A stretch of DNA of 64,000 bases from Opitutia bacterium (GTDB lineage: Bacteria; Verrucomicrobiota; Kiritimatiellia; CAIQIC01; Lenti-01): contig SABN01000001.1 in NCBI GenBank assembly GCA_009928955.1, forward strand, positions 11,994-75,993, read 5' to 3'. Positions within the stretch are counted from its first letter, which is position 1, and each line of letters begins with the position of its first letter. Positions 35,701 through 61,634 of the stretch are shown here, piece by piece. The notes beneath the pieces are model-generated. The model saw only the letters and a program-made list of their open reading frames with translations. It was not told the origin of the DNA and made no database searches. A program made the position numbers and the translations under genes.

Positions 35701-38700
35701 GCCGGCGGGAACCGTCGCCGCCGTCACGCGCCGGGGCGTTCCATCGTAGGTCTGCTCCAAGCCTGCCAGCGCGACCGTCGCGACCGCCTTGGCCACCACC
35801 CACGTGCCGGTGGTTGAAGCCTGGTGATTTCCATCGACCACGGTGGCGACCACGGCATAGCTCCCGGCTTCCGTCGGGACCGCCGTCCCGCCGTCGTAGC
35901 GGAATTCGACCGCCAAGCCGGCGGGAACCGTCGTCGCCGTCGCGTTCTTCGGCGTGCCATCGTACACCGGCTCCAGCGCGCCCAGCAAGATCACCGCCTC
36001 GGCCTTGGCCACCACCAGCGTGCCGGTGGCCGATCCCACGAAGATGTCATCGGCCACGACGCCGACCACGGCATAGCTCCCGGCCTCCGTCGGCGCGGCG
36101 GCGCTTCCATCGTAGGTGAAGCGGACGGCCAATCCGGCCGGTTCCGTTCGGGCCGTCGCGACGCGCGGCTGGCCGTCGTAGCCCTGCTCGAGATCCTGCA
36201 GGAAAATCTCCGCGGAAGCCGGCGCGCCGTTCGTCATCTCGTTGCCGGCGATGCGCAAGGCCGGGTCGCCGAGCAGATTGTAGACCGCGAAGGTATCGCG
36301 GCTGGACAGATCGCTCCGCAGCGACCGGCGCGCCCGCAAGAACGCCAAGCCCAGCGTACCCACGCCGTCCTGGAGGACGGCGCGATAGAACGCCTCGCCC
36401 AGTTCCATCGCGGGAGCGTTGAACGAGAGCCCCGAGGGAGCCAAGAGCGCGACCGCCCCGCCTTGCGGACGCCTCATCAACAGCTCGCCGAGGCTGTCCG
36501 TCGCGGGCAATTCATAACGCCCCAACAGGCAGCTCAGCGCCACCGTGATCGGCGGCCGGGTGGCGTTGTCCATCTTCGCGACGTCGGCCGCCGTCAACAG
36601 CCCCTTCCCGCTGAGGTTGAAGAGCCCGCCATGGCCCGTGTAATGGATGAACCCCGCGCCGGCATGGAAGGCGTCCATCAGACTCGCGCGCGCCGGGCCG
36701 ATGGCCATCTGGTCCAGATCGATGCGGCTGGCCACCGAATACGGCGCCGTCGCCCACTCCGCCAGCTTGGTGTTTGAATCCGAGAAATTCCCCGCCGAAT
36801 TGCCTTGATCGGCCACCAGCACCAGCTGGTTCTGCCACGCCGAACCGAATCCGGCCTCGTAGACCTTGATCTTCGCGATCATCGCCGCCAGATCTGCCGC
36901 CGTCAGCGCCGGCAGGCGGCCGATGGCGACATCCGGCCGGTCATCGCCGCCGGTGTCCGCCAGCAATCCGTCCGATGCGCAGACCCCGTCGGGGGTTTGG
37001 ACCAGCAACGGCGGCAGCGGATTCACTTCGTCAAACGTGGCGCCCAGATAGTCATAGTGTCCCCCGCCCGCCAGCACCACCATCTTCGGCGCTTGCGCCC
37101 AGGTCGCCGCGGCATGGCGCAACAGCGCCGGAATCGCCTGGGGCGTGCGCAGGCCCCCGGTCATCAGGTCGCAGAGGTCTTCAAACACCGCCACGCCGAC
37201 GCGCAGCCCTTGGCCCGCGCGGTAGTCGGCCAACTCCTGCGCGGCCGGGGCCAGCGCGCGCGAAGCGATCACCAGATAGTCGATCCGGTTCGTCTCCGAC
37301 AAGAACCAGGCGTCCGCCGCCGCCGGCTCCGGCACCAACATCGGAACCGCGGACGATTCGATCACGGCGAAGCGCTCGTTTTCGGCGGCCACCGCCCAAG
37401 CCTTGGCGGAAAGTTCGCCCTTCGCGTCGGCGATCCATGTGGGATTCCCCGCTTCGTCCAACGCCAGCGCCAGCGGATCGGAATAGGCGCCCGCCGAAAA
37501 CGCCGGCGCCTGGCCCGCGCGGAAGGGCGCGACGGGGGCGGAAGGCGTCAGGTCGCGATCGAACGACGCCTCGATCCAGTCCACCACGAAGAAGCTGTGG
37601 CTCTGGCCCGGCTTCATCACGCCGTTCACCATGACCGTGTTGACGCCGTTCACGACCGCCGCGCCGGGGATCGTCAGCTCGGCTTCGGCCGTCTCCTGGC
37701 CGTCGAAGGCGATCGAACCCGCCACGGCGCCGTTGAAACTGATTTCCGCCAAGTGGTCCGGATGGTTGGTCGTGGCGGACCAGCCCATGAGGCGGACCTT
37801 CAGGTTCAGGTCGCCGCCCGCGAAGCCGGTCAGATCCAGCGGGAAGCGGGGCGCCAACAGATCGTTGGTCTGGCTGACGACGCCCGCCCAGAAGTAGAAG
37901 TCCTCCGGCATTTGCGTCATGCTGAACAGGAACCGGTCTTCTTCGAAGTGGAGCCGCACGGGGAAGACCGTCCCGCCGGAGGAAGCCCCCGGCTCGCGGC
38001 GGGGCATGGCGAGGCCCTTGCCCGCCGAAATCAGATAGGCCGCCTCATGCGAATACCAATCGCGCACCGGCGGCCGGGCGTGGAACACCAAGCGGCCGCG
38101 CTCCGCGTCGAAGAGCACCGGCACCGGAAGCCCCTGCTCGGCGATCTTCAACTCCCCCGCTGCGGCCTGCGCCCGCACGTCTTCGAGGGCGAGGCCCATG
38201 CCGGCGGCGATCGAAGTCAACGCCACGCCATGGATGCCTTCTTTTTTCACCAGGACTTTCAGCCGGGAGGACGGTTCCGCGGGAACCGGCGCGGTGCGCG
38301 GCGCAGGCGCGAGCGCCTTGGCCGCCGCGGCTTTCTTCGTCCGGACGGCCTTGGCCGCCGGCGGCGGAACCGCGAACCGAACGGCATGGGTGCCGAGACC
38401 CCGGGCCTCGCCGGAAAGCTCGATTTCTTCCAGGCGGTATGTCCCTTCATCGCCTTCGCGGGCTTCGGGATCGACCAGCCCATAGACGGAACCCGCCTCG
38501 TTGAACGCCGACGGCACCAGGATGTCGCTCATCCGGGTTTCCTTCCCGGTCTCCGGATCGACGCGATGGACGAAGAAACCCGCCGTCCCGAATTCGGAAC
38601 CCGTCCGCCACGCCACGCGCCCGCCGTCTTTCGTCCATTCGCCCCAAACCTCGGCCACCTCGGCGCGGGTGGAGTCCCTTGTGCTGATCCCCAAGTCGAC

Positions 38701-41700
38701 GGCCAGATGGATCTCTTCCTCGCCCGAGGCGGGCGGCCGGCCGCCGACGGTAAACGCCCCGGTCCAGGCGTAATCGCCGGTCGTGCCGGAGATCGCGTCG
38801 CTGTCGACCGCGTCGTCGCCGCCCGCCTTGGAGGCGGTGACGACGTCGTTCGTGCTGATGCCGGAGAGATCGAAGCGAATCACATAGGTTCCGGCCCGCT
38901 TGTCTGAGAACAGATAGTACCCGTCCGCGTCCGTGGTGGTCTCGGCCACGATGATCCCGTTGGTGTTCAGCAGCGCGACCGGCACATCGGCGAACCCGTT
39001 GGTCTCGCCGGGATTCTGGATGCCATCCCGGTTGGCGTCGAACCAGACGCGGTCGCCGATTGAAACCACCTGGAAAAAGCCCGCATCCACCGTGAAGTTG
39101 GTTTGACCGCTGCGCAGCGTCACGGTCGCGGTCAAGCCCGTGTCCGGCGCCGGATCGCTGTCCGTGGCGTCGTCGCCGACGTCCGCCACCGTGGTCAAAT
39201 AGCCCGGCGGAGGCGTGAAACCGATGAGATAGGCGCCCGGAACCAGATCCGTGAACGCATAGGCGCCATCCAGGGTGGTTGTTTCCACGCCCACCACGTT
39301 GGACGCGGCATTGTACAAGCGCACCACGACGTTGGGCAATCCCCGGTCGCCGGATTCCTGCTGCCCGTTCCAGTTCACATCTTCCCAGGTCCAGTCGCCG
39401 ATGGCGCCCAGCCGGTAGAAGCCCGCGTCCCAGCTGGTGTCGTCCGCGCCGCCGCTCAGCGAGAAGACCGCCGTGCGCCCCGTGCCGGCGGCGATGTCGC
39501 TGTCCAGCGCGTCGTCGCCGCCCTGATCCTGCGCCGCGGCAAAATAGTCCGGCGGCGGCGCGAACTCGAGGAAATAGGATCCGGCCGGCAGGTTCGTGAA
39601 GTGGTACGAGCCGTCCGCGCCGGTCGTTGTTTCCGCCAGCAGGTTCGACCCGGCGCCGTAGAGCCGCACCGTCACGTCTGCCAAGCCGGCCTCGCCGACA
39701 CCCTGGATGCCATCGCCATCGGCGTCGAGCCAGGCCCGGTCGCCCACGGTCGCCCACCCCTTCGGCACGATGACGACCGAACTGCTGTCGTTGTCGGCAA
39801 CGGGATCGAACAAGTCGCGGCCGGTCACGGTGGCGGTGTTGGTGATGTTCAAATCCGCGGTGTTTTCACGCACGGTCACGTGGACATGGAGCGTCGTGGA
39901 GGCGTTCACCGCCAGCGTCCCGATGGTCCAGGCCCCGGAACCCGCGCTGTAGGCGCCGTTGGAATGGCCGACGTACTGCACCTGCGGCGGCAACACGTCC
40001 GTGATGACCACTCCCGTGGCCGTGTCGGGCCCGTTGTTCGATGCGACCAGGATGTACGGGATGGTCTCCAGCATGTCTGGCGTGGCCTCGGCGACAAACT
40101 TCCGAACGCCCACGTCCGCGAAGACGACGCAGTTGGTCGTCGACGCTTGCAGCGGCGGCTGCAGGGGGCTGGAGACCGACGCGGTGTTGACCAGTTGCGT
40201 CACCAGCGAAGGCGCATCCACCGTCGCTTGGAACGTGACCACCAGCCTCCCTCCCGGCGTCAGATCTTGGCCGGAGACCAGCCCCGGCGGCGCGAAAGCG
40301 GGATTCGTCGCCACGCCGGACCGGAGGCTCGAAATCTCGATGTTGTCCAGATAGGCGTACTCGCCGCTCTCCCAGTTCTCGGTCCCCGGCGCGGCCTCGA
40401 ACCGGACCGTGGTTCCCGTGGAGATGTAGGCGGTGAGGTCGTAGCTGGCGGTGCCGCTGGCGGTGCCGCCAAATTGCTCGAGTTGCGTGAACGGACCGCC
40501 GGGACTCGTCGCCACCCGCACGGCCAGATATTCATTGGCGTCCAGCCCGACCGTCTGCCAATCGAACGACAGCGTGGCATTCGTTTCCGCGCTCAGGTCG
40601 GCCCACCGCCAAGCGGCCTCGTCGCCGACATAAAGATAATGCAGCGTCATCCGGCCATTCGTCACACCCACGTAATTTCCAACTGGGCCAGCCGTCCCCG
40701 CCGGGTCGTCCTCCTGCCAATCCACCGCCCAGTTCCGCGTGCCGTCCTGGCCGGAATAAGACACGGCATTGAATTCATCGCGGACGGTGCTGACCGTCGC
40801 GTTGGAGACCACGGCAAAGGCCGAATTCGGAACGTAGGTCAGGCCCGCCGGCAAGAGGTCCTCCACCGCGACGCCGGTTTGCGTCACGTTGCCGGTGTTC
40901 ACGACGGTCAGGGTGTAGGTGATCGCATCGCCCGGCGACAGGCAGGACCCGGCGGCGGAGGTCTTGGTCAAGTGCAGCCCATGCACGATCTCCACCAGCC
41001 CGGCATCCCACCGGGTGTCGTGGGTGCCCACCGGCAGGAAAAACGGCGCCGTTCTTCCGGTGGTCCGCGAAACATCGCTGTCGGCCGCGTCGTCGCCCCC
41101 TTGGTTCTGCAAGGTGAACATGAACCCCGGCGGCGCCGTGAATTCCAGGAAATACGTCGCCGGCGGCAGGTTGGGGAAGCTGTAGAATCCCGCAGCCGTG
41201 GTGTTCGTGGTGGCCACGAGGTTCGTGGCGGCATCGTACAGCTGGACCGCCACGCCGGGCATCCCGGTTTCGCTGCCGCCGCCTTGGAGCCCGTCGACGT
41301 CCACCTCCCGCCAGACGAAGTCGCCGATCGAGGCGGGCGGCTGGTGGAAGCCCGCGTCCCGGGTCATGTCGCTCATCCCCCCGGACAGCGCGAATGCCGC
41401 CGTGCGGCCCGTGGCGGGAGCGATGTCGCTGTCCAGCGCGTCGTTGCCGCCTTGGTCCTGCAACGCGGGCAAATGATCCTCAGGCGCGTCGAATTCCAAG
41501 AAATAGGTTCCGGAAGGCAGGTGGGCGAAGCCATAGGCCCCGGCGACGCCGCTGGTCGTCGTCGCCACCCAGTTCGACCCGGCGGCGTAGATCCGCACCG
41601 TCACGCCCGTCAGCCCGGGCTCGCCCCCGTCTTGGATGCCGTCGCCGTCCACGTCGAACCACGCCCGATCGCCCACGGAGTTCGCCACCGAAACGTTCGT

Positions 41701-42144
41701 GACCGACGCCGTCAGCGGCGGCGTCGCCGGATTCGTCGCCGCCGCGGTGTTCACGAACTGGGTCGCGACCAACGGCACGTCCAGCGTCGTGCGGATTCGC
41801 ACCGTCACGCTCGAGCCCGCCGGCACCGCGTAGTTCGACAGCAGGCTCGCCGGCGTCGCCCCCGCCAAGTTCGACACCACGTTCACCGTCACGCCGGGTT
41901 GATAGACCGCCACCGGGACCAATGACACCACATGCCCCGAATTGGTGAAGGTGACGTAGTCGATGCTGATCCGGTCGCCGTTTCCGAACGACCCGCCCGC
42001 CCGCAGCCGCAAAGCCAGGTTGGCGCCCATGCGGGAAGTCAGGTTGGTGGTGACCTGGACATAGCTCGCGTCCGTTCCGGCCGTGGTCGGCACGGCGAAC
42101 ACCAGGTTCGACTGCCCGGCGAATCCGTTCGTGGAAACGTAAAA
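32716..42144 (-). CDS. giant adhesin-like surface protein, downstream segment of a frameshifted ~4218-codon gene
   Basis: There is no genuine start: the track 'M' is an internal GTG in ...NLVFAVPTT. Recognisable units are 5 SdrD-B-like repeats (GDRAW.D.DGDGIQ), DUF11-like units, and a C25 domain (HYTGHGG with the His codon at 36631-33, ALSCLLG with the Cys codon at 36529-31). It also has 3 MBG-like units (YDGTP...AGSYAV) and 4 discoidin-like domains. Confidence 0.85.
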   Translation of the reverse strand, partial: FYVSTNGFAGQSNLVFAVPTTAGTDASYVQVTTNLTSRMGANLALRLRAGGSFGNGDRISIDYVTFTNSGHVVSLVPVAVYQPGVTVNVVSNLAGATPASLLSNYAVPAGSSVTVRIRTTLDVPLVATQFVNTAAATNPATPPLTASVTNVSVANSVGDRAWFDVDGDGIQDGGEPGLTGVTVRIYAAGSNWVATTTSGVAGAYGFAHLPSGTYFLEFDAPEDHLPALQDQGGNDALDSDIAPATGRTAAFALSGGMSDMTRDAGFHQPPASIGDFVWREVDVDGLQGGGSETGMPGVAVQLYDAATNLVATTNTTAAGFYSFPNLPPATYFLEFTAPPGFMFTLQNQGGDDAADSDVSRTTGRTAPFFLPVGTHDTRWDAGLVEIVHGLHLTKTSAAGSCLSPGDAITYTLTVVNTGNVTQTGVAVEDLLPAGLTYVPNSAFAVVSNATVSTVRDEFNAVSYSGQDGTRNWAVDWQEDDPAGTAGPVGNYVGVTNGRMTLHYLYVGDEAAWRWADLSAETNATLSFDWQTVGLDANEYLAVRVATSPGGPFTQLEQFGGTASGTASYDLTAYISTGTTVRFEAAPGTENWESGEYAYLDNIEISSLRSGVATNPAFAPPGLVSGQDLTPGGRLVVTFQATVDAPSLVTQLVNTASVSSPLQPPLQASTTNCVVFADVGVRKFVAEATPDMLETIPYILVASNNGPDTATGVVITDVLPPQVQYVGHSNGAYSAGSGAWTIGTLAVNASTTLHVHVTVRENTADLNITNTATVTGRDLFDPVADNDSSSVVIVPKGWATVGDRAWLDADGDGIQGVGEAGLADVTVRLYGAGSNLLAETTTGADGSYHFTNLPAGSYFLEFAPPPDYFAAAQDQGGDDALDSDIAAGTGRTAVFSLSGGADDTSWDAGFYRLGAIGDWTWEDVNWNGQQESGDRGLPNVVVRLYNAASNVVGVETTTLDGAYAFTDLVPGAYLIGFTPPPGYLTTVADVGDDATDSDPAPDTGLTATVTLRSGQTNFTVDAGFFQVVSIGDRVWFDANRDGIQNPGETNGFADVPVALLNTNGIIVAETTTDADGYYLFSDKRAGTYVIRFDLSGISTNDVVTASKAGGDDAVDSDAISGTTGDYAWTGAFTVGGRPPASGEEEIHLAVDLGISTRDSTRAEVAEVWGEWTKDGGRVAWRTGSEFGTAGFFVHRVDPETGKETRMSDILVPSAFNEAGSVYGLVDPEAREGDEGTYRLEEIELSGEARGLGTHAVRFAVPPPAAKAVRTKKAAAAKALAPAPRTAPVPAEPSSRLKVLVKKEGIHGVALTSIAAGMGLALEDVRAQAAAGELKIAEQGLPVPVLFDAERGRLVFHARPPVRDWYSHEAAYLISAGKGLAMPRREPGASSGGTVFPVRLHFEEDRFLFSMTQMPEDFYFWAGVVSQTNDLLAPRFPLDLTGFAGGDLNLKVRLMGWSATTNHPDHLAEISFNGAVAGSIAFDGQETAEAELTIPGAAVVNGVNTVMVNGVMKPGQSHSFFVVDWIEASFDRDLTPSAPVAPFRAGQAPAFSAGAYSDPLALALDEAGNPTWIADAKGELSAKAWAVAAENERFAVIESSAVPMLVPEPAAADAWFLSETNRIDYLVIASRALAPAAQELADYRAGQGLRVGVAVFEDLCDLMTGGLRTPQAIPALLRHAAATWAQAPKMVVLAGGGHYDYLGATFDEVNPLPPLLVQTPDGVCASDGLLADTGGDDRPDVAIGRLPALTAADLAAMIAKIKVYEAGFGSAWQNQLVLVADQGNSAGNFSDSNTKLAEWATAPYSVASRIDLDQMAIGPARASLMDAFHAGAGFIHYTGHGGLFNLSGKGLLTAADVAKMDNATRPPITVALSCLLGRYELPATDSLGELLMRRPQGGAVALLAPSGLSFNAPAMELGEAFYRAVLQDGVGTLGLAFLRARRSLRSDLSSRDTFAVYNLLGDPALRIAGNEMTNGAPASAEIFLQDLEQGYDGQPRVATARTEPAGLAVRFTYDGSAAAPTEAGSYAVVGVVADDIFVGSATGTLVVAKAEAVILLGALEPVYDGTPKNATATTVPAGLAVEFRYDGGTAVPTEAGSYAVVATVVDGNHQASTTGTWVVAKAVATVALAGLEQTYDGTPRRVTAATVPAGLAVAITYGSGDAPPVLAGRYAVSAEIEDPNFAGGSAGALVVAKAAQTIEFPGIDDPLAPDGVGLSAISSSSLPVGFAVVDGPGRILDGPHLSFTGAGAVSVMAFQAGDGNWEPAPDVVRTFHVSPILLSATDVNVREGGEGRFYVRLAYAPAAATAVTVARSGGASVLSVKSGAGLLFSPANWNVWQAVTLAAAADGNGDNETAMFRVSASGVADQFVEATALDIDIGPNLALASNGSRITGTQATKPEWLIDGVHGASANYGYTIWTNRASPGTMTLDLQEAMRVSRIRLLNWDWGLRAHQYRIESSLDGTTWSPLVDASEGEHRGWEDWAVEDLSIRYLRFTGLSNSANQYVCLAEWEVYGPSSQFQLPRPELSSAAVNVREAGEGRFHVRLDRAPEANVAVAVSRASGDERLSVQSGAALVFTPANWAAWQVVTLAAGEDENGANETATFRISAPGVADRVMKATALDIDIGENRARASLGSTITGTQAYAPERAIDGVHASSVNYGYPVWTNPASPGTLTLDLKVATTVSRIRLLNWDWGYRSHRYRIESSLDGANWSALIDASTGEHRGWEDWAVAARTARYLRFTALSNSANRYVCIAEWEVYAAPVEPRQIECLATAVNVREGGEGRFHVRLDSAPAGSVSVGVSRSAGDANLFVKSGANLTFTPANWNAWQTVTLAASEDANGENETATFRIAVPGGADRLVEATALDDDIGVNWARASNGSTISGMQATKPEYLTDAVHMSSANYGYTFWTNEPPGTITLDLKAATSVSRIRLLNWDWSYRVHQYRIESSLDGASWSPLVEASAGEHRGWEDWALDGRSARYLRLTGLSNSANRFVCIAEWEVYGERTPEPKPRAVAKAASPAEFTDAGSFPMTVVTSDDGPEHTNGWAAVDGDPNTQWTGKSGAGGYIAIGYDVPMWVTNLVVDLAEGSSIPGQILYSPDAREWRTLPEDLARNPVEITYLWLLFPEDAFAASEPRVIEIRPQP
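33140..35330. repeat. three tandem ~735-741-nt coding modules (Ig/Calx-like + discoidin-like) inside the giant gene
   Basis: The protein segments VNVREGGEGRF...LLNWDW...YRIESSLDG..W...AEWEVY recur three times. The EWEVY-coding sites lie near 33141, 33872 and 34612. Confidence 0.8.
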
Positions 42145-45100
42145 AGGTGAAGGAATCCCCCGAATCCCAGTTCTGGCGGCGATAGGCGAAGCTCAGGGTG
42201 ACGCTGGTGTAGACCCGGCCCGCCGCCGCCGCCAAGGCATTGGTGCGCGTGACATGGTCGTTGTCCGCGCTGGTTTCCTCGAATACCAGCGCGTTGGTGC
42301 CGCCGGCCACGCGCACCAGCACGCTGCCGCTGGCGGCGGAGCCGTTGTCGCCCTGCTCGTTCCAGCCCCCGACCCAGTTGGCCGTGCCATCGTTGTTCGC
42401 ATAGGACACCGTCCCGAATCCATCCGAAACCGTTTCCACGAAGGAATTGGTTGTCGTCGCCAGCAACTGGACGATCTGTGCGCTGCCGGATACGAAGGAG
42501 ACCCCCGGCGGCAACGCGTCGGTCAGCGCCACCCCGGCCAAGGCCACCGTGCCGGTGTTCTGGAGCGTGAGGTAGTAATCGTTGGTCTCTCCCAGATTCC
42601 AATTGCCGGTCAGGCGGCTCGATTTGAACAGTTTCAGGCTCACGGTCGCCGGATTGTAGAAGCCCGCGTCCACCGTGTCGTCCACCTGGCCGCCCGACAG
42701 GATGATCGGAGCCGTGATGCCCGTGGCCGGATCGGCATCGCTGTCCGTCGCGTCCGCGCCCGCGTTCGCCGTCGTGAAGGAATAGCCCGCCGGCGGCGTG
42801 AACCCCACGAAATAGGTGCCGGCGGACAGGTTGGTGAAGGCATAGGCGCCCGCCACGGTGGAGGTCGTCGTCCCGACCCCGTTCAACGCCGCATCGTACA
42901 ACCGCACCACCACGCCCGCCAACCCCGGCTCCCCGCCGTCCTGCCGCCCGTTGAAATTCGCATCCACCCACGTGAAGTTGCCAATCGCCGCGGGCTGGAC
43001 AAACCCCGCGTCCACCGTCGTCTCCGCTTGGCCGCTGGTCAGCGCGATCGGCGCCGTGAAGCCCGTGCCGGCATCCGCATCGCTGTCCGTCGCGTCGTCG
43101 CCCGTGTTGGCCAAGGTGAACACATAACCCGCCGGGCGCGTGAACCCCACGAAGTAGGAACCCGGAAACAAGTTCGTGAACGCATACGCCCCCGCCACGG
43201 ACGACGTCGTCGTGGCGAGGAGATTGGAAGCCGCGTTGTACAGCCGCACCACCACGTTCGAGCGCCCCGGCTCTCCGCCGTCCTGCTGCCCGTTGCCGTT
43301 CGCGTCCCCCCACGTGCAATCGCCGAGCGAGGCCGGACGGACGAAGCCCGCGTCCACCGTGGCCTCCGCCTGACCGCTGACGAGGGTGACCAGCGCCGTG
43401 CGGTTCGTGCCCGGCAGCGGATCACTGTCCGTCGCGTCCGCGCCGGCGTTGGACGTCGTGAACAGGTAGCCCGCCGGCGGTGCAAACCCGACGAAATAGG
43501 AACCCGGCGCTAGATTCGCGAACGCATAGGCCCCGGCCACCGACGAAGTCGTCGCCGCGAGCAGGTTGGAGTTCGCTTTGTACAGTCGCACGCCCACGTT
43601 CGGCAGCGCCGGTTCCCCGCCGTCCTGCTGCCCGTTGCCGTTCGCGTCCTCCCACGTGAAATCGCCGAGGGCGGCTGGCCGGTAGAAACCCGCATCCACC
43701 GTCCCGTTGGTTTGCCCGCTGACCAGCGGGATCAGCGCCGTGCGGTTCGTGCCCGGCAGCGGATCGCTGTCCGTCGCGTCGGCCCCGACGTTTGCGGTCG
43801 TGAACAAGTAGCCCGCCGGCGGCGTGAAATCCACGAAGTAGCTGGCGCCCGGCAGCAGATTCGTGAACGCATAGGCGCCGGCCGCCGACGACGTCGTCGT
43901 CCCGATCACGTTCGACGCCGCATTGTACAGCCGCACCTCAACGTTGGAGAGCGCCGGTTCGCCGGGGTCCTGCTGTCCGTTGCCGTTGGTGTCTTCCCAC
44001 GTCCAATCGCCGAGCGTCGCCCGCCGGTACAGGCCCGCATCCAGCGTGAGATTGGTCTGGCCGGTGCCCATCGCAAACAACGCCGTCAGGCCCGTGGCGA
44101 GGTCGGCGTCGCTGTCGATCGCCGGGTCGGTTCCAGCGTAGCGCGCCGTGAATTCATAGCCATCCGGCAAGAAATACTTCGCGAAATACGTCCCCGGCCC
44201 GTGGCCCGGGGATTTCCAAGATCCGTTGGTGTCCGTGCGGACCACCGCCGCCAGATTGGCGCTGCCGTCGCACACATGCACCAGCACGTTGGAAAGACCC
44301 GGTTCGCCGGCCTCCTGCACCCCGTTCGCATTCAGATCCTCCCACGCCCGGTCGCCCAAGGTCACGTTCAAAGCCTCGTCGTAGAACATCAAGCCGCCGC
44401 TGATCAGGTCGAGGCCGCCAAAGGTCGATTCCGGCGACGTGTTCGTCGGAAAATAGACGGCGTTGTTGACCAACGTCCAATAGGCCCCGTTCGTCGTCGT
44501 GTCGTTCGCCGCCAACGCATAGCCGTAGAAGAGATCGTTGGTCCGCAGTCCCAGCGTCTGCCAGTTCAGGAACACGCCGGACAGCGGCTGCGGGCTCACG
44601 TCGGCCGACGGATGCTGGGAATCGCCGCTTCCCGTGTAGCCGCGCATCACGATCGTGTCGAGCGAGATGCCGGAGGCGCCCCAGTGCGTTTCCAGCACGC
44701 TGATCGGCGTTCCGAACGCCGAGGGCTTCTGGTTGCCGTCCAGCGCCGTGATCGCGGCGATCTTGAACCGGTCGTTGCCGCCGCGGTCCATCACCAGGAA
44801 TCCGCGCTGTTCGATGTGGCTGTGCACCGGCAGCCCATCCGGAAACAGGTAGTCGATGCGCTGGATGTTGTTGTTGTTCCCGTTGCCGTCGCCTTGGTCG
44901 GAGAACACGTTGTCCGCGCCATGGTTGATCAGCGGACTGCGCAGGGATTCTTCCATCGTGGCCGCGTAGCGCGACTTCAGGAAGATGTTCGTCCCTGAAT
45001 ACGACGACTGCTCGTAGAGCACGATGTGATGCTCCCCTTTGATCGTCGCGTTGGTCGTCCGGGCGATGTTGATCCGCCCCGCCAAGGCGATGCCGTCAAA

Positions 45101-45373
45101 CACGCGTCCGCCGACCGTGACATCCCCCAGGAACATCTGGTTCGAAACGCCCTCGTTGAACCGGATGTTGTAGACCGTTCCCGTGGGGAACCCCGCGCTG
45201 CCGCCGCCCGTGGCGGAATAGTTGTCGTTCGTGTCCGTGTAGGTCTGGTACGTCACCGTCGCGCTCGAAATCCCCTGCACCTGCGCCTGCGCGAAGGCCC
45301 CGCCCCATGCCAGCCAGACAAGCAGAAGCGCCCCGCATCCATGCACCCGACTTTTCTGGATTGTCGCTCTCAT
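42143..45373 (-). CDS. giant adhesin-like surface protein, upstream segment (signal peptide, ~330-aa unknown domain, 5 SdrD-B-like repeats, DUF11-like, start of lectin-like domain)
   Basis: It starts with a signal peptide (MRATIQKSRVHGCGALLLVWLAWGGAFAQA). The reading frame makes sense down to ...NWDSGDSFTF at the A5 run (42141-42145). The remaining track ORF (41480-42140) is Arg-rich out-of-frame overlap. Confidence 0.85.
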
Positions 45374-45804: not shown

Positions 45805-46413
45805 TCAGGCCGGTCCTGCGTTCCCCTCCAAAAACGAGGAGAGACGGTTCTCCAACTCCAACTCAACCCCGCCGGATTCCTTCGAAAACCATAGACTCCC
45901 GCCCGGGCAGACGCGCGCGATTTCCGCGACCCATCGGAACCACTGCCGCCGCATCTGCCGAACGGAGGACATGTTGCCCGCCGCCGTCCCCCGCCCCTCT
46001 TGCGGCCGGCCGAACTTGCGCTGCAAGTCGATTTCCATCGCCGCATCCATCAGGCACCGGGCGAGTTCCAAGGGGGCGAGCGGCTCCACCCTCGCGGCGG
46101 CCGCCTTGTGGATCCGAAAACACCCCCGCAACGGCACCGCCCCCCCCCCCTCGGCGCGACGACGGACTTCCTCCAGCCAGCCAAGCCATTCGTCCCTTTC
46201 AAACCGGAAACTCCCATCCACCCCCCGCCAATTTCCATCCGGGCCCCGTGCGACATACACCGAATCATCGGCCAAGACCGGATGGGTCTTTCCCAGCATC
46301 CGCGCGATCGTGCTCTTCCCCGCCGTCGAATGGCCCAGAAACAGAAGCGCGCCTCCGTCGACGACCACCGCGGAGGCGTGCAGAAACAATCCTCCTGCCG
46401 CAGCGGCGATCAT
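45805..46413 (-). CDS. HPr-kinase-C-terminal-like P-loop protein (HprK-related kinase)
   Basis: The in-frame ATG is at 46413, with an ATGA overlap with the rSAM stop. It reads LHASAVVVDGGALLFLGHSTAGKST, which resembles the HprK catalytic core. It is ~202 aa. Confidence 0.7.
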   Translation of the reverse strand: MIAAAAGGLFLHASAVVVDGGALLFLGHSTAGKSTIARMLGKTHPVLADDSVYVARGPDGNWRGVDGSFRFERDEWLGWLEEVRRRAEGGGAVPLRGCFRIHKAAAARVEPLAPLELARCLMDAAMEIDLQRKFGRPQEGRGTAAGNMSSVRQMRRQWFRWVAEIARVCPGGSLWFSKESGGVELELENRLSSFLEGNAGPA

Positions 46414-47585
46414 GGGGCGATTTCTCCTCGCCCCCACGAAATTCGCCTCGTCGGCGGAAAAACGCCCCGTCGCTCCGCTTCCGCGCAGAGCGGCGACACG
46501 TTCACCAGCTTGCCCGTGGCCTCGTAGTTCTGGGCCAGGCAATGCGTCATGCACCGGCCCGCATGGAGGCAGTCCCCGCAAACTCCCGGAAAGGGGCCCG
46601 CCAGATCCGCCCGCATCTGGCGCAAGACCGGATGCGTCATCCAGACTTCCCGCAGGCTGTCCTTTCCCAGCTTCCCGAAACACAGCTCCGGGAGGTTGCG
46701 CCCGATGCCGCACAGCGCCATCTCGCCGGTTCCCAGAATGCCCAGGATGTGCCGCACATGGCATCCGGCTCCCTCGCCGCCATAGCGCAGCAGTTCCTTG
46801 ACCGTCGCCAGCGCCGGCGGCACCATCCCGCCGAGATGGATCGGATAGCGGTCCTGCAAGGGCCCGCGGATGCGGTGCGTCAACGCCAGCAACTCGTCGA
46901 AGGAAAGCCCCTGCCCTTGCTGGTGGATCTCCGCGCCGCGGCCCGAGGGCGTGACCGGATTGAACTTCACCGAGCTGGCGTCCAGGCGCAGGGCCAGCTC
47001 GATCAGGGCTTCGATCCCGCCCACGTTCTCCCGGCAGACGGACATGATGATCTGCGGCCGGATTCCGGCGGCAACCAGATGGCCGATGCCGCGCACGGCG
47101 CCGGCGTAGGCGCCGCGCACGCCCCGGAACCGGTCGTGCCAGCCCTCGTCCGCGCTGTCGAGGCTCACCGCGATGCGCGCGAGGCTCGTCTTCTCCTTCA
47201 GATGGATGGCCAAGTCCCGGTCGATCAGCGTGGCATTGGTCTCCATGGACAGATCGAGGCCTTCCGCCGTGAGAAAATCGGCGATCCGCCGAAACTCCGG
47301 ATGCAGCACCGGCTCCCCGCCCGTGAGCTTGGCGGCCGTCAACCCCATCGGCTTGGCCTCCGCCACCGCGCCCCGCAGCAGCTTGAAATCGAGGCATTCC
47401 CCCGGCACGGGCTTGCCATGGACGAAGGTGGGCGTGATCCAGCAATGCCGGCAGTGCAAATTGCACCCCGCGGACAGGTACAAGTAGAACATGCGCAAGG
47501 CCGGCACGTCCGGCGGCATCTCCACCCCGGGGGAAGACGGGGAACTTTCGGCCAGCCCGTCGCAGGTGTCGAGGACATCCGTCAC
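46410..47585 (-). CDS. radical SAM/SPASM domain protein (no RRE of its own)
   Basis: It has the CNLHCRHC cluster motif and a C-terminal Cys-rich SPASM-like region (CHVRH...CGIG...CGDCLHAGRCMTHC). The start is GTG, overlapping the upstream stop (GTGA). Confidence 0.88.
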   Translation of the reverse strand: MTDVLDTCDGLAESSPSSPGVEMPPDVPALRMFYLYLSAGCNLHCRHCWITPTFVHGKPVPGECLDFKLLRGAVAEAKPMGLTAAKLTGGEPVLHPEFRRIADFLTAEGLDLSMETNATLIDRDLAIHLKEKTSLARIAVSLDSADEGWHDRFRGVRGAYAGAVRGIGHLVAAGIRPQIIMSVCRENVGGIEALIELALRLDASSVKFNPVTPSGRGAEIHQQGQGLSFDELLALTHRIRGPLQDRYPIHLGGMVPPALATVKELLRYGGEGAGCHVRHILGILGTGEMALCGIGRNLPELCFGKLGKDSLREVWMTHPVLRQMRADLAGPFPGVCGDCLHAGRCMTHCLAQNYEATGKLVNVSPLCAEAERRGVFPPTRRISWGRGEIAP

Positions 47586-48205
47586 GCGGAGGTCTCCACC
47601 ACGCCGATGAACCCCTTTTTCAAGAGGGATCCGATGAATTCATCCACGTCCTTCTCCACTTGGGCGCGAGCCGTTCCCTCGCAGACTTCGCACAGGTGCG
47701 CCACCACCTCGGCCTGCGTGCGGGGCGCCGCCAAAAACGTCCAGATGGCCACCGCGACGGGATTGATGACCTCGATCGAATCCGTGTCCGGATTGAACAA
47801 GATCCCCCCGTCGTCGTCCTCCTGGCGGAAGGAGACATCGGGATTCACCAGGAATTTCGCTGCATTCATCGGCTCCGGCCTTTCCATTTTCAAATCCACC
47901 ACCCGCCGGACGATGCCGTGGCGCTCCATTTCCCGCAGCGCCTCGGCGATCGGCGCCAGCATCTCGCGCGCCGGAACCCCGCATCCGGCGGCGACCGCCC
48001 AGGCAATATCCTGCACCGTCCGCTCCCCGTCAAGGAGCTCCAGCAATTGTTTCGACCGTCCGTTGACTTCGCGCAAGTGAAGGGAGTCGCAGAGCAACAC
48101 CAGCGACCGGTCCCCGAAGTCTTCGATCGCGGTGTCGTCCCGAAGCCTGAAGCGCAGGTGACAGGGGTCAGGAGACCGGGGACAGGAAGAATCAGTCATG
48201 GCCAC
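47582..48205 (-). CDS. tandem PqqD-family (two RRE-like domains) protein
   Basis: Two PqqD-like halves are present. The first runs DFGDRSLVLLCDSLHLREVNGRSKQLLELLDGERTVQDI. The second runs FRQEDDDGGILFNPDTDSIEVINPVAVAIWTFL...EVVAHL. The first ~14 codons lie in the cassette inverted repeat, so the start is uncertain (GTG 48205 or ATG 48199). Confidence 0.75.
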   Translation of the reverse strand: MAMTDSSCPRSPDPCHLRFRLRDDTAIEDFGDRSLVLLCDSLHLREVNGRSKQLLELLDGERTVQDIAWAVAAGCGVPAREMLAPIAEALREMERHGIVRRVVDLKMERPEPMNAAKFLVNPDVSFRQEDDDGGILFNPDTDSIEVINPVAVAIWTFLAAPRTQAEVVAHLCEVCEGTARAQVEKDVDEFIGSLLKKGFIGVVETSA

Positions 48206-48665
48206 ACAGGAAAGGAGTTGGCGCCTTAATCATGGAGCCTATCATTTTTCCAACTTCACGGTTGAGCGCTATCAAAACGCGATGCTCATCGGGAGTCAAG
48301 CAGCCACAGTCCCGCGTGAAATCGAGCGCGGTATCCGTTTCGTTGTTTTCGCCGTCGCAATCGGTCAGCTTGGACACAAAATGCGCCTCATATCTACCCT
48401 TAGCCCAAGCCTCGCGGAGGTTCAGACAAACTGAGCGGGAAGATCGGCGAATCTGGCTGGTCAGCGCGAATCTCGCTTCTGCAGGAAACCGTTTGGAGCA
48501 TTCGAATACCCGCATCGCCAAATCATATGCCTTCTGGTAAACGGTAAGATCTTTAATGGTCTGCACAGCCATGGCGGTCGCCTGTCTCCGATTTCCTGTC
48601 CCGCCCCCCCTGTTCCCCGTCCCCGGTCGCCTGTTTCCTGACTGCCTCCTGTCCCCGGTCTCCTG
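48169..48665 (-). mobile_element. 497-bp cassette: four-helix-bundle gene bracketed by a 19-bp inverted repeat (IVS-like insertion)
   Basis: Segment 48169-48187 (caggagaccggggacagga) is the exact reverse complement of 48647-48665. There are extra direct copies of ccccggtc[g/t]cctgtttcctg at 48618-48640 and 48650-48672. Confidence 0.45.
48192..48572 (-). CDS. four-helix-bundle protein (23S rRNA intervening-sequence protein / Avd-like family)
   Basis: It reads DLTVYQKAYDLAMRVF...QIRRSSRSVCLNLREAWAKGRY.AHF.SKL, the family signature. GC is visibly lower than in the neighbours. Confidence 0.88.
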   Translation of the reverse strand: MAVQTIKDLTVYQKAYDLAMRVFECSKRFPAEARFALTSQIRRSSRSVCLNLREAWAKGRYEAHFVSKLTDCDGENNETDTALDFTRDCGCLTPDEHRVLIALNREVGKMIGSMIKAPTPFLCGHD

Positions 48666-50070
48666 TTTCCTGGAGGAACCGCCGATAACAGCAATCCGGA
48701 TTGGCCACGTACAAATCGCCGGTGCGGGTGTATTCGACGGCCGGGCACCCCCCGCTGCAGTACGGAATCCATTCGCAGCCCGCGCAACCCGGCACCCGGT
48801 CCATCGGGATGCGCCCGCGCCCGCGCATTTCCTTCAGCAGCGGATGATCCTGCCAGATGGCGCGGACGGGCGTCTCGCCGATCCTTCCCAGCGAGGCGGC
48901 CGCCAGCATGTTGCAGGGAACGATCATGCCGTCGTGGTGGACCGCCAGCTTGGCGAACATGCATCCGCAGGAGGAAAGGCATCCCATCTTCCAGCGGCGG
49001 CAGGGTTGCCCGGTGGCCTTGGCCTCCTCCATCTCCCGGAACATGTGCCACAGGGCCAACGATCCGGCCGTGGCCTGGATGCGCCCCGGATAGGTCTTCT
49101 CCAGCCGCGCCAGCGTCTTCATCGCGACCGGCCGCTGTTCCGGAGTCAGCCCGATGCGGTCCTGATTCGAGCATCCCGTCCCCATGGCCATCGCATCGTT
49201 GGTGCCGATCCGCGCCAGCCCGATTTCGTCGAGCAGCAGCCGGACCGTGTTGTCCAGATCGTCCACGTTGTGCCGGTTGACCGTCACGCGGGCCGTCGCC
49301 GGAAAACCCGCCGCCTTCAGCAGCCGCAACCCGCGGATCGCCTTCTCGAAACTGCCTTTTCCCCGGGAAGCGTCGTGGACCGCCGCGCAGGAACCATCGA
49401 TCGAGATCTGGATCGAGTCCATCCGCCGGTGGCGCCCCCGCTCCCTGAACCGGTCCAGCGTCTCCTCCGTGATCCGCGTGCCGTTCGACAGGATGCCGTA
49501 GCGCATGCGGGCCGCCACGAGGCCGTCGATCAGTCGCCACACGTCGTCCCGCATGAAGAGTTCGCCGCCGCTGAGCGTCAGGCTCCGCACGGCCAGGGTT
49601 TTCAACTCGGCGAAAAAGGCCAGCCATGTCTCGGCGGGGAGATCCCGCCGCCCCGCCATCTCATCGGCGTAGTAGCAATAGGCGCACCCCAGATTGCACC
49701 GGCCGGTCAGGGAAAGGTCCAAGCTCCGCGGCGCCTCGTGGAGCCATGAATGTTCTTCCGGCGGAAGCGGCTTCGGACTTGGGGCGCCGGCGGCGGCGGC
49801 ATAGCCGCCGCGCTTCAGCTCGTCCGCGAACGAGGCGGCATCCGCCCGGATTTCATCCGTCACGGGAATTTCAAACCGGCGGGCCAGCGCGGCGGCCAGG
49901 TCCTCCGTCCGCGCCCTTCCGTCCATGGCGTCCCAGAGCATCCGCCCCGAGGCGTTGATCACCTTCTCCCGGCCCGTGTCCGGATCGAAGAGAATGGCGT
50001 TGTCCCCCTCCCGGCAGACGGAAATCTGCGGCTTCCGGAACCAAAAAGCCGTGGGTTCCGGAGGACTCAT
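48553..50070 (-). CDS. radical SAM/SPASM peptide maturase with N-terminal PqqD/RRE-like domain
   Basis: The N-terminus is ISVCREGDNAILFDPDTGREKVINASGRMLWD (PqqD-like). It has the CNLGCAYC motif and a SPASM region ending ...CCYRRF. The last ~37 codons (ETGDRG...) are encoded by cassette repeats. ATGA overlaps the upstream sugar dehydratase stop. Confidence 0.88.
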   Translation of the reverse strand: MSPPEPTAFWFRKPQISVCREGDNAILFDPDTGREKVINASGRMLWDAMDGRARTEDLAAALARRFEIPVTDEIRADAASFADELKRGGYAAAAGAPSPKPLPPEEHSWLHEAPRSLDLSLTGRCNLGCAYCYYADEMAGRRDLPAETWLAFFAELKTLAVRSLTLSGGELFMRDDVWRLIDGLVAARMRYGILSNGTRITEETLDRFRERGRHRRMDSIQISIDGSCAAVHDASRGKGSFEKAIRGLRLLKAAGFPATARVTVNRHNVDDLDNTVRLLLDEIGLARIGTNDAMAMGTGCSNQDRIGLTPEQRPVAMKTLARLEKTYPGRIQATAGSLALWHMFREMEEAKATGQPCRRWKMGCLSSCGCMFAKLAVHHDGMIVPCNMLAAASLGRIGETPVRAIWQDHPLLKEMRGRGRIPMDRVPGCAGCEWIPYCSGGCPAVEYTRTGDLYVANPDCCYRRFLQETGDRGQEAVRKQATGDGEQGGRDRKSETGDRHGCADH

Positions 50071-59297: not shown

Positions 59298-61150
59298 CCG
59301 GGGGAACCCAACTCGACGGACACGGAGGAATGCGGCGGCACGTCGACCAGGCGCATGCAGCGGCGCCCGCCCTGGAATTCGATTTCCAGCGGCAGGCCCG
59401 TCAGCGCGCGGTCGCCCGTGTTGCGGACTTCGACCGCGCCATCGGCGGCCCGCAACTCGATGGTGCGCGTCCGCTCGCTGAGAACATCGCGCCAATAGCG
59501 CCCCATCGCGGTAAGCGTCGCCGGATAGACATCGCCTTCCGCGTCGACCAAGACATGGCGCAGCAATTCCGCGGTCAGGCCATGGCAGGCATGCGTCTGG
59601 TACAGCATCAGGTGATGATGGGCCAAGAACACCAGCGCCCGTCCCTTCCGCCGCGCGAACCCGAGCCAGAACTTCAGCATGGCGATCTGCGCCGCATGGA
59701 CCGGATCGCGGGGCAGCATCCGCGTCAGCTCGACCAGCCGGGCGCATCCCGCCGGATGGTGCTCGGCGGGGAACGTGAGCAATTTCTGCCACTTCGTGGC
59801 ATCGGTTTCGTTCCCCACTTCGATTCCCGCCGCCTCGACCGCCCGGGCGGTGTCGGCGTCGAACATGTCGCTGGGCGGCGTGTAGCAGGCGGTGTGGATC
59901 CCCAGTTTCTCTTCGATCGCCGCCGTGCAGGCGGCGATGTTGTCGCGCTGCTCGGCGAAGGAATCGCACGGATAGGCCTTCAGCCACGGATAATTCCCCT
60001 GCCCGGTGCGGGCGTGCATGGTCCAGCCGTTGGCGGGATCGGCCGCCGCATGCGTACCCCAATGCAAATGGCCATGGTTGCCGATTTCCGCCGAGAGCGG
60101 ACGGTCCGTGCGGACCGGAAACTCCTGCTCGACCGCCGTGTCCACCTCTTCGCGCAGGAAGCGGATGAAGCCGGGAATCTCTTCGCTGTGCCGGTTCCAG
60201 CCGAATTTTTCGCAGAAGGCCGCGTGTGCCTCGGGGAAAAGGCTCAAGCGCGACGACAGCATCACCGTGGTCGGCATCCGGAACCGCGCCGCCAGCCCCA
60301 GCGCGATGCGCAAGCCCTCGGCCGACTGGAAGGTGGCCGGATCGTACAGATCGTTGTCGCCGCGCCAGACAAACCCGGCGCGCGCCCCGTATTTCCAGCG
60401 GCGGATGGCGACCTTTCCAATACGGAGCGATGCTTGGGCGGGCACCGACGCGATGCGCAAGGTGCGTTCCCACGTCCAATCGCCATGCGTAATGCGCAGG
60501 CGCACGTCGCCGCCCCCTCCGGCGCGTTCCGCGCGGACGGTGAACGCCTGCACGGCGATCTGGCCGGGATCCGGACAGCGGGTTTCGGCCGGGCCATCCA
60601 TTTTCGCGGATACGTGGGTGCTGGCCGTCGAAATTTCGATGCGGAGCGGCAACTGCGGCCGCACCGTGCCCGGATTCAGGACCGTCAGTTCAAACGGCTG
60701 CGTCCATCCTTCGGGAACATCCCCGGCCTGGTAGACGCGACGCCCCCGCCGCAGCACCGGCCCGCGCAAGTGGACGATCAGCCGCGGGACCGGCAACGGA
60801 ACCCGCCCCTTGAGCGCCGCGCATTGCCGGGCGGGCGAATCCGAACGCCATTTCAGATCCACCAGCAGAGCGCCAGCCCAGACGGCGCCCAGCGCGAGCG
60901 CCACCGCCGCCGCCGCATACCCTCCCCACAGGAAACCGCCCCCCAGCGTCGCCAACCCCAGCAAGAGGTAATCCATCCAAACCCGGCGCAGGCGCAGCTT
61001 GATCTCCAGCGTTTCGTAGACCACGTTCGCCAGCAGCATCAACCAACCGGCGCGGCAAGGCGCCAGAAAGAAACACTTGCTCAGGACGAAAATGCCCGCC
61101 AGACCCATGAATACGGCGGTCGCCACGATTGCTGTGAGTTGAGTCATCAT
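59294..61150 (-). CDS. membrane protein with CE4/deacetylase-like domain (paralog of 55224-57014)
   Basis: It starts MMTQLTAIV (ATG 61150). It reads WRGDNDLYD...GNHGHLH...FAEQRDNI...LAHHH. Confidence 0.6.
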   Translation of the reverse strand: MMTQLTAIVATAVFMGLAGIFVLSKCFFLAPCRAGWLMLLANVVYETLEIKLRLRRVWMDYLLLGLATLGGGFLWGGYAAAAVALALGAVWAGALLVDLKWRSDSPARQCAALKGRVPLPVPRLIVHLRGPVLRRGRRVYQAGDVPEGWTQPFELTVLNPGTVRPQLPLRIEISTASTHVSAKMDGPAETRCPDPGQIAVQAFTVRAERAGGGGDVRLRITHGDWTWERTLRIASVPAQASLRIGKVAIRRWKYGARAGFVWRGDNDLYDPATFQSAEGLRIALGLAARFRMPTTVMLSSRLSLFPEAHAAFCEKFGWNRHSEEIPGFIRFLREEVDTAVEQEFPVRTDRPLSAEIGNHGHLHWGTHAAADPANGWTMHARTGQGNYPWLKAYPCDSFAEQRDNIAACTAAIEEKLGIHTACYTPPSDMFDADTARAVEAAGIEVGNETDATKWQKLLTFPAEHHPAGCARLVELTRMLPRDPVHAAQIAMLKFWLGFARRKGRALVFLAHHHLMLYQTHACHGLTAELLRHVLVDAEGDVYPATLTAMGRYWRDVLSERTRTIELRAADGAVEVRNTGDRALTGLPLEIEFQGGRRCMRLVDVPPHSSVSVELGSPG

Positions 61151-61172
61151 AATCCGTGAATGGTCGACCGTG

Positions 61173-61634
61173 GGCGGTCGGCAGTCGGCAGTGAAGCCAA
61201 CACTCCGTTTATCCTTCCTGTGGTTTCCATATCTCCGGGTTCTTGACCATGACGCCAATCTTGGCGCCGATTTCCTCTGAATGCCGGTGCAATGAAATAA
61301 ATACGCTTTTCTCGAGATAACCACAATCACAAGCCGTAGCCAACCAATGCTGGGTTTCGGCGTTTTCACCATCCGAATCGGTGAGTTTGGATGCAAAATG
61401 AGCGGGATACCGCCGTTTTCTCCATGCCTCCGCAATATTTGCGCCGACAGAACGAGAGGATCTTCGAATCTGGTCGGTCAAGGAATAGGCCTCCTCCTTT
61501 GGGAAGGACTTTGAAATCCTGAAAATATCTTGCTGCAATTGAAAAGCCAATTTGTAGACATCTAAATCCTGAAATCGAAGCGCCATCATGAAGCGTTTTC
61601 CTCCGTTGCCGCCAACGGCCTACTGCCCACCGCC
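61173..61634 (-). mobile_element. 462-bp cassette: four-helix-bundle gene bracketed by imperfect 18-bp inverted repeat
   Basis: Segment 61173-61190 (ggcggtcggcagtcggca) matches the reverse complement of 61617-61634 (ggcggtgggcagtaggcc) at 15/18 positions. GGCAGT/ACTGCC motifs are repeated on both sides. Confidence 0.4.
61209..61589 (-). CDS. four-helix-bundle protein (23S rRNA IVS protein / Avd-like family), second copy
   Basis: It reads DLDVYKLAFQLQQDIF...QIRRSSRSVGANIAEAWRKRRYPAHFASKL. At 126 aa it matches copy 1 in length. GC is lower than in the flanks. Confidence 0.88.
   Translation of the reverse strand: MMALRFQDLDVYKLAFQLQQDIFRISKSFPKEEAYSLTDQIRRSSRSVGANIAEAWRKRRYPAHFASKLTDSDGENAETQHWLATACDCGYLEKSVFISLHRHSEEIGAKIGVMVKNPEIWKPQEG

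Follow-up and report, generated by a model that had tools for sequence, protein, structure and literature searches.

Inverted heptamer arrays around a four-helix-bundle gene in a SynChlorMet-like operon resemble the intervening sequences of 23S rRNA

How does a small gene bounded by a perfect inverted repeat come to stand between two genes that overlap directly in related loci, and what kind of element is it? The question is raised by the window analysed here, a 64,000-nt (64-kb) stretch of contig SABN01000001.1 (positions 11,994 to 75,993) from an Opitutia bacterium (assembly GCA_009928955.1), in which a gene of 126 aa on the minus strand (48192-48572) separates an ScmE-like radical SAM (rSAM) gene from an ScmD-like gene. 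Positions 48169-48187 (CAGGAGACCGGGGACAGGA) are the exact reverse complement of 48647-48665, forming a perfect 19-bp inverted repeat, or one of 26 nt at 88% when mismatches are allowed. The interval, hereafter cassette 1, has this gene as its sole credible one and a GC content of 0.53-0.58 (0.65-0.69 on either side); for the gene itself the value is 0.52, against 0.67 in the flanks. A preliminary description of the locus had reported the repeat, the single gene and the low GC, all of which were confirmed by sequence comparison, and had proposed a mobile or formerly mobile element, similar to the intervening sequences (IVSs) of rRNA, living in an mRNA. The reading we prefer, in which we place somewhat more confidence than doubt, is that this interval of ~508 bp is a selfish cassette akin to the IVSs of 23S rRNA that bear an open reading frame (ORF), here residing in a protein-coding operon and presumably subject to processing by RNase III.

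The encoded protein belongs to the family first found in such IVSs. It matches PF05635 (23S_rRNA_IVP) with 97.6 bits (E 6e-28, cut-off 33.8) and TIGR02436 (four helix bundle protein) with 89.5 bits (E 1.5e-25, cut-off 24), and its nearest solved structures are PDB 2RLD and 2GSC, each deposited with five chains. Neither profile searches nor PADLOC found a nuclease or recombinase domain in the 126 aa, and the PADLOC search for defence systems gave no match, on which ground a defence-system assignment of the cassette was rejected.

Comparison of filled and empty orthologous loci showed that cassette 1 is an insertion into a translationally coupled ScmE/ScmD junction. Empty sites do exist in relatives: at L003/L004 and L043 ScmE overlaps ScmD directly (GTGA / ATGA), with neither cassette gene nor repeats, in loci that share with the filled ones the synteny DegT-VanZ-CapD-ScmE-ScmD-ScmF-ScmC-giant surface protein. 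Filled sites were found at L001/L002, L005-L007, L036 and in six GTDB species representatives (L045-L050), where the four-helix-bundle gene is 77-82% identical to that of the window and inverted arms lie at matching positions. This filled/empty comparison placed the boundaries of cassette 1 at ~48158 and 48665, and alignment showed it standing in place of ~40 nt of the native junction. At L042 and L044 the same junction holds another lineage of the gene (57-60% identical) with CGAGGTC-type heptamers, downstream of the native ScmE stop, and the junction has therefore been colonised at least twice. The proposal of a mobile or formerly mobile element is thus borne out by filled and empty orthologous loci and by a second lineage at the same junction.

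Locus L044 retains, in addition, remnants of CAGGRGN arrays outside its newer CGAGGTC-type arrays, and it looks as if one cassette had replaced or entered another. The outer remnants, at 3040-3200 and 3585-3665 of that locus (QETGVRIQG in the ScmE tail on one side and CCTCCTGTCCCCTG on the other), nest the resident cassette. The C-terminal tail of ScmE (ETGDRGQ versus EECGxLP) was tried as a proxy for occupancy and rejected, L042 and L044 having the native tail and yet carrying a cassette of the other lineage. Many Scm operons exist without any four-helix-bundle gene.

The arms are inverted arrays of tandem heptamers, of which the 19-bp repeat is the best-preserved stretch; the preliminary description was right about the repeat itself and had missed the tandem nature of the arms. 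The arm that is 5' in the transcript (48647..48672, minus strand; the right arm on the plus strand) has the units CAGGAAA-CAGGAGA-CCGGGGA-CAGGA and includes the perfect 19-nt core at 48647-48665, whereas the 3' arm (48155..48187, minus strand, perfect core 48169-48187) is the reverse complement of such an array and reads CAGGGGA with period 7 on the plus strand. Tandem Repeats Finder (TRF) detects period-7 arrays beside both four-helix-bundle genes of the window, and at cassette 1 it reports CAGGGGA at 48155-48186 with 4.6 copies and 72% matches, a short and imperfect array. Between the 5' arm and the cassette gene lie two further degenerate copies of a 25-nt heptamer-derived unit (48574..48646, minus strand), purine-rich and forming the 5' leader of the gene. 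A 23-nt direct repeat with a 32-nt period had been noted here; the period stands, and the repeat proved longer, 48616-48640 and 48648-48672 being identical at 23 of 25 positions, with a third copy at 48574-48598 (72% identical). All three 25-nt copies are made of degenerate heptamers. A scan of the 64 kb for the 19-bp repeat, with up to three mismatches, returned the two arms and two degenerate neighbours only, where shuffles predict 0.04 matches.

The same design recurs in relatives of the protein. A metagenome scan with the window protein gave 37 loci, most of them outside Scm operons, and a scan of one genome per species gave at least 583 relatives, of which the best 80, 64-82% identical, were taken; the loci were selected by protein similarity, subfamilies were sampled down to ~28% identity, and the pooled set for array statistics comprised 101 loci. 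The best 80 span Kiritimatiellia, Verrucomicrobiota, Planctomycetota, Lentisphaerae, Chloroflexota, Acidobacteriota, Ignavibacteria, Bacteroidota and deltaproteobacterial groups. Sense C[AG]G heptamers (at least two in phase within 150 nt upstream) were present at 95 of the 101 loci, against 6 in the wrong-strand control, and antisense ones downstream at 71 of 101, against 9. The unit consensus over these loci is CAGRRGW, in sense orientation upstream and as its reverse complement downstream, and the purine content is 67% over the upstream 100 nt and 38% over the 100 nt downstream. Scored for their best inverted repeat, the two flanks gave a median of 15, versus 7 for flanks shifted by 400-1000 nt, and 71% of the loci exceeded the 95th percentile of that control. 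Neighbouring genes were mostly co-oriented with the cassette gene (60/71 upstream, 55/69 downstream) and the cassette ATG followed the upstream stop at a median distance of 54 nt; cassette genes therefore live inside operons. As counts of arrays these figures may be too low, since metagenome assemblies may collapse or mask them.

That inverted heptamer arrays and a four-helix-bundle gene together make up a discrete cassette, present in many phyla and of the same design as rRNA IVSs, is well supported by these comparisons. Proteins 64-82% identical to that of the window occur in unrelated operons of many phyla with the same flanking design, as expected of the element first proposed; relatives with the gene have the repeats too, which keep to four-helix-bundle genes rather than being a common motif unrelated to them. 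More distant members also fit: of six such genes on cyanobacterial plasmids (28-50% identical), all are preceded by short tandem arrays rich in purines and five are followed by an inverted copy.

Several individual loci deserve mention. Recurrent cassette sites include the start of a wecB-like gene and the start of a carbamoyltransferase-like gene. On the Anabaena sp. 90 plasmid pANA02 (L132, NC_019429.1 43092-45833) a cassette with inverted CAGGTGA arrays separates cas6 from cas4 in a type I-D CRISPR-Cas operon. At L027 a heptamer hairpin without an ORF (sense array, short loop, complement; ~580-700) lies just upstream of a cassette gene and is similar to the inverted pairs without a gene that are known from Geobacter and Xanthomonas. 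Runs of N stand exactly at the expected array positions in the GTDB contigs of L066, L072, L105 and L119. Cassette genes 68-69% identical to the window protein were found at L098, on a contig labelled uncultured Bifidobacterium sp., and at L100 (Hyphomicrobiales), and their occurrence in such distant taxa may be real transfer or a binning error.

As judged from their sequences, the two arms of a cassette co-evolve. Complementarity is higher between the arms of one cassette than between an arm and a foreign one (medians 15 vs 9, p 2e-17), and the excess persists after matching for composition and for position 7 (p 0.0015), a result on which composition alone was rejected as the cause of the co-variation. 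At position 7, which is A or T, the two arms are concordant (odds ratio 16.7, p 2e-5); for the G content of their units no significant correlation was seen (rho 0.19). In the window itself both arms hold, at corresponding positions, the non-consensus unit CCGGGGA in place of the CAGGGGA of its relatives.

Substitution rates indicate that the cassette protein is under strong purifying selection. The ratio of nonsynonymous to synonymous divergence (dN/dS) of the gene is 0.05-0.13 where synonymous divergence can be measured, and most pairs are saturated at synonymous sites with dN of at most 0.3; low dN beside saturated dS means that the protein is functional, unlike the decaying ORF of the Coxiella IVS. 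Among the filled Scm loci dS exceeds 1.2, yet each retains 18-32 nt of near-perfect arm complementarity.

The window holds a second cassette of the same design (61148..61633, minus strand), whose four-helix-bundle gene (61209-61589, GC ~0.47) is 51% identical to the first. Its 5' array, GCAGTAG-GCGGTGG-GCAGTAG (~61611-61638, minus strand), provides the upstream deacetylase gene with its stop codon, the complementary 3' array (61173-61192, minus strand) matches at 15 of 17 positions, and the arm sequences differ between the two cassettes. L125 is empty for cassette 2, a 27-nt spacer replacing the 486-bp cassette next to a deacetylase that is 93% identical, and L127 is likewise empty; from these comparisons the gain or loss of cassette 2 is recent. 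In L125 the native sequence at 2920-2935 resembles the first heptamer of cassette 2 (window 61625-61640, GCAGGCGG). At cassette 1 the first unit of the 5' arm coincides with the native ScmE codons QET of the empty site L043 (window 48662-48672 against L043 3390-3400, CAGGAAAC.GG). This loose likeness of first heptamer and native sequence at both cassettes may be microhomology at the insertion point, or chance.

The host operon is Kiritimatiellia-like and SynChlorMet-like, with Scm scores under the equivalog cut-offs. Its genes, all on the minus strand, encode in this order a CapD-like dehydratase and ScmE-like, four-helix-bundle, ScmD-like, ScmF-like and ScmC-like proteins; in the region 46410-50070 the ScmE-like protein is an rSAM/SPASM enzyme with a fused N-terminal PqqD domain and has ScmE as its best NCBIfam match, the ScmD-like one is a tandem PqqD, and the ScmF-like gene is a second rSAM/SPASM gene. 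The NCBIfam Scm models score best and below their cut-offs throughout (ScmE 381.8 and ScmF 341.6, cut-off 400; ScmD 53.5, cut-off 100; ScmC 35.8, cut-off 125). Named homologues come from Kiritimatiellia, and Joint Genome Institute (JGI) annotation calls close homologues ScmE. Directly downstream of the Scm genes are very large surface-protein ORFs (32716-45373), within which a 342-bp unit is repeated 3.9 times at 42722-44047 (77% matches); at the corresponding position of orthologous loci the giant surface proteins have 3200-3600 aa and SdrD_B, GEVED and Peptidase_C25 matches.

Both neighbours of cassette 1 have taken its arms into their reading frames. The ScmE-like gene (48553..50070, minus strand) ends in ~32 cassette-derived codons (~48553-48665), its stop lying 17 nt inside the four-helix-bundle ORF; the 5' arm is translated in this tail (..QETGDRGQ..) and the two degenerate copies of the 25-nt unit encode the rest of it. 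That the rSAM ORF runs on through the repeats had been seen before, and only the size changes: 40 residues follow CCYRRF in the window protein and 8 in the common orthologs of 473 aa, a net extension of ~32 aa and not the ~37 first given. Most of the 120 closest ScmE homologues have 473-474 aa and end in ...CCYRRFLEECGxLP, with a minority ending in ...FLQETGDRGQ(ETGDRGQ)n like the window protein. In the other filled loci with a cassette of the window's own type (type A) the ScmE stop falls from 6 nt before to 17 nt after the cassette ATG.

On the other side, the tandem-PqqD gene (47582..48199, minus strand) had been thought to begin inside the left arm. It begins earlier, at ATG 48199 (48197-48199), which overlaps the four-helix-bundle stop (ATGACTGA) in the loop between the arms, or at GTG 48205, and then reads through the 3' arm, translated as ScmD residues ~5-15 (SCPRSPDPC). 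In all 12 filled Scm loci the ScmD ATG overlaps the cassette stop and the frame is kept through the 3' array. Sense-strand heptamers are nearly without T and open in all frames, hence the repeat-encoded tails on neighbouring proteins; the arrays account for the odd tails and heads (ETGDRGQ..., SCPLSPD...) met in annotation of such neighbours. A scan for promoters and terminators around cassette 1 gave nothing above chance, and the cassette is co-transcribed with ScmE and ScmD and translationally chained to them, without a detectable promoter of its own.

How would such a cassette behave in an mRNA? We propose that its parts, purine-rich tandem heptamers (CAGRRGW), a conserved four-helix-bundle gene and a reverse-complement array, would act through the transcript, where the arrays are predicted to form a ~20-26-bp duplex with the cassette gene in its loop. 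If the rRNA IVSs are a guide, RNase III would cut this duplex when ribosomes do not keep it open, and the cassette mRNA would be set free at the expense of some ScmE and ScmD expression in the host. The arms are paired in the predicted minimum free energy (MFE) fold of the 571-nt region; joined by an artificial loop, those of cassette 1 alone have a predicted energy of -52.3 kcal/mol (z -8.5) and those of cassette 2 one of -41.6 kcal/mol (z -5.0). On the same analogy, RNase III probably cleaves the arm duplex at the window locus.

Several observations weigh against this reading. Taken whole, the 571-nt region is predicted to fold only slightly better than shuffles (z -1.8), and arm mismatches show no excess of G:U over A:C (136 vs 165, p 0.11), so that arm complementarity could be maintained at the DNA level or by sequence homogenisation. 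The part that would be looped out contains both the ScmE stop and the ScmD start in 12 of 12 filled Scm loci; efficient cleavage would strip the ScmE mRNA of its stop and the ScmD mRNA of its start, and this arrangement has been kept beyond synonymous saturation. A speculative reconciliation is that translating ribosomes would unwind the 5' arm and processing would occur only on poorly translated transcripts. The arrays of L129 (Oscillatoria nigro-viridis plasmid, NC_019730.1) are direct and not inverted, and both its neighbour genes are on the opposite strand. Mobility is a further difficulty: the single 126-aa ORF is not a recombinase, and the three filled/empty comparisons revealed neither a target-site duplication nor a conserved terminal motif, so that, as far as sequence goes, nothing of this kind accounts for the movement of the cassette.

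Some of these points would suit an element that acts in DNA, its arrays being sites of recombination or protein binding (for the cassette's own pentameric four-helix-bundle protein or a host factor) or substrates that form hairpins or cruciforms, with RNA pairing incidental and no role for RNase III in the operon copies. Such an element would agree with arrays that always travel with the gene, with a family spread over phyla at 64-82% protein identity, with one junction hit twice by different lineages and the nested arrays of L044, with the lack of a G:U excess, with heptamer copy number varying among Coxiella strains (PMC4990558), and with a C[AG]G core conserved on both arms, as expected of a binding motif. 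We nonetheless consider it unlikely, given that a 126-aa protein with no nuclease or recombinase domain offers no catalytic candidate, that no target-site duplication is visible, that the arms differ between two copies in one 64-kb window, and that the homologous rRNA IVS is experimentally an RNase III substrate (PMC4990558). The absence of a present function altogether, cassette 1 being the inert scar of an old insertion whose gene was domesticated into the Scm operon, would agree with the age of the type A insertion, which has been passed on vertically in at least 12 lineages, and with neighbours that have both absorbed the arms into their frames. Arms that stay near-perfect where synonymous sites are saturated, a non-consensus unit compensated in both arms of the window, a design that recurs at unrelated sites and in distant family members, and many Scm operons that work without the gene make a scar very improbable.

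A regulatory role has about as little to recommend it. The arrays would be translational signals, Shine-Dalgarno (SD)-like units recruiting ribosomes and the anti-SD-like downstream copy sequestering them, or period-7 slippage in the ScmD N-terminus would make the downstream maturase genes phase-variable. The common units CAGAGGT, CAGGAGA and CAGGAGT do hold SD-like cores (GGAG, GAGG, AGGA), whereas CAGAAGT and CAGAGAT, also common, do not; the arrays sit in the leader of the cassette gene with a fixed polarity (purines 67% upstream vs 38% downstream), and this role leaves the joint arrival of arrays and gene unexplained. As for slippage, a period of 7 is not a multiple of 3, the arrays of cassette 1 lie within two ORFs and the Coxiella heptamers vary in copy number (PMC4990558), but slippage should be rare in window arrays as short and imperfect as these (72% matches), and ScmD is in frame in 12 of 12 filled Scm loci. 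Phase variation of ScmD was accordingly left unsupported by these loci, which are consensus assemblies.

If the IVS-like reading of cassette 1 is extended to the whole family, a larger and much more tentative picture emerges, to which we attach a low probability. Cassettes of a four-helix-bundle gene and inverted heptamers would be a large mobile class, so far unrecognised, colonising operon junctions in bacteria of different phyla; rRNA IVSs would be copies that landed in rRNA, the heptamers of cyanobacteria (short tandemly repeated repetitive sequences, STRR), Xanthomonas and Geobacter would be arms or ORF-less relics, and an Avd-like pentameric protein would bind heptamer RNA or DNA, acting in mobility (perhaps via RNase III-released RNA and a reverse transcriptase in trans) or in the control of processing. 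One origin may then join three puzzles: the source of rRNA IVSs and the role of their conserved ORF, the over-representation of heptamer tandem repeats in cyanobacteria, Xanthomonas and Geobacter, and the widespread four-helix-bundle genes in the middle of operons (polysaccharide, RiPP-like (ribosomally synthesised and post-translationally modified peptide), CRISPR-Cas, accB-accC). If the stems are RNase III sites, thousands of operons would carry a built-in processing site of selfish origin. The cassette, arrays and gene together, is a concrete and testable unit with natural filled and empty alleles, and genetically manipulable carriers exist. Full-text searches of a limited library found no literature linking PF05635-family genes outside rRNA with inverted heptamer arrays, which is not proof of novelty.

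Finally, we compared the cassette with known systems. Like a miniature inverted-repeat transposable element (MITE) it is short, bounded by inverted repeats, without transposase and polymorphic for presence and absence; it differs in carrying a conserved protein gene and in having variable tandem arrays as its termini. The two window copies differ in their arms, filled and empty junctions compared show no direct duplication, and cassette 1 holds a single 126-aa ORF; we do not assign the cassette to transposons or MITEs. With Avd, the accessory protein of diversity-generating retroelements (DGRs), it shares a four-helix-bundle fold family (window protein vs PF22296 bAvd, E 7.5e-13), whereas its match to NF033474 reaches 38.4 bits vs an equivalog cut-off of 80. 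A DGR was rejected on that score and because no reverse transcriptase or template/variable repeat is adjacent, the neighbours being Scm and polysaccharide genes.

A further comparison is with the orphan heptamer repeats. Rehm 2015 (PMC4692102) listed, with no function assigned, GGGAATC arrays for Xanthomonas, 70 of which occur as convergent pairs, and GGGGA(C/T)T arrays for Nostoc. In the Geobacter metallireducens genome, sets of five MTYCTGA heptamers form eight pairs between genes of operons, the members of a pair ~100 bp apart and on opposite strands (PMC2700814). These repeats (cyanobacterial STRR / GGGGA(C/T)T, Xanthomonas GGGAATC, Geobacter) have in common with the cassette arms a period of 7, a G-rich unit, a position between genes within operons and often a convergent inverted pairing, and the cyanobacterial plasmid four-helix-bundle genes are flanked by similar arrays. 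Unlike the cassettes, most published arrays enclose no gene and some pairs are only ~100 bp apart; they were published as G-quadruplex or regulator sites, and the four-helix-bundle link was not drawn there. One array in the supplementary table of Rehm 2015 (PMC4692102) lies between bccP and XCC0516, overlapping the start of XCC0516 on the same strand, and XCC0516, abutted by this GGGAATC array, is the member of the four-helix-bundle family solved as 2GSC.

The closest likeness is to the ORF-bearing IVSs of 23S rRNA genes, known from Leptospira and Coxiella burnetii (Ralph & McClelland 1993, Afseth 1995, Warrier 2016 = PMC4990558). In Coxiella the 23S IVS has a 28-bp terminal stem and is cut by RNase III in vitro, two or three GACAGAT heptamers, their number varying by strain, lie between an SD-like sequence and the S23p ATG, the 5' RNase III cut falls at the first heptamer, and the ORF has been reported as decaying and untranslated (all PMC4990558). 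The window element differs in position, between two protein genes of one operon rather than within rRNA helix 25 or 45 (an Rfam search of the window found no rRNA or other RNA family), in having its arms translated as extensions of the neighbouring proteins, and in an ORF under strong purifying selection where that of Coxiella decays; RNase III excision is experimental for Coxiella, and for the window element it is proposed by analogy. By location it is not an rRNA IVS, and it is filed here as an IVS-type cassette in an mRNA. The two nevertheless agree in a length of ~0.45-0.5 kb, in complementary termini around a single PF05635-family ORF, in a GC content below that of the host, in sporadic carriers and non-carriers and, as the first proposal of an IVS-like element would lead one to expect, in the same kind of purine-rich tandem heptamer array, which separates the ATG from the 5' terminus (GACAGAT in Coxiella (PMC4990558), CAGGRGA in the window).

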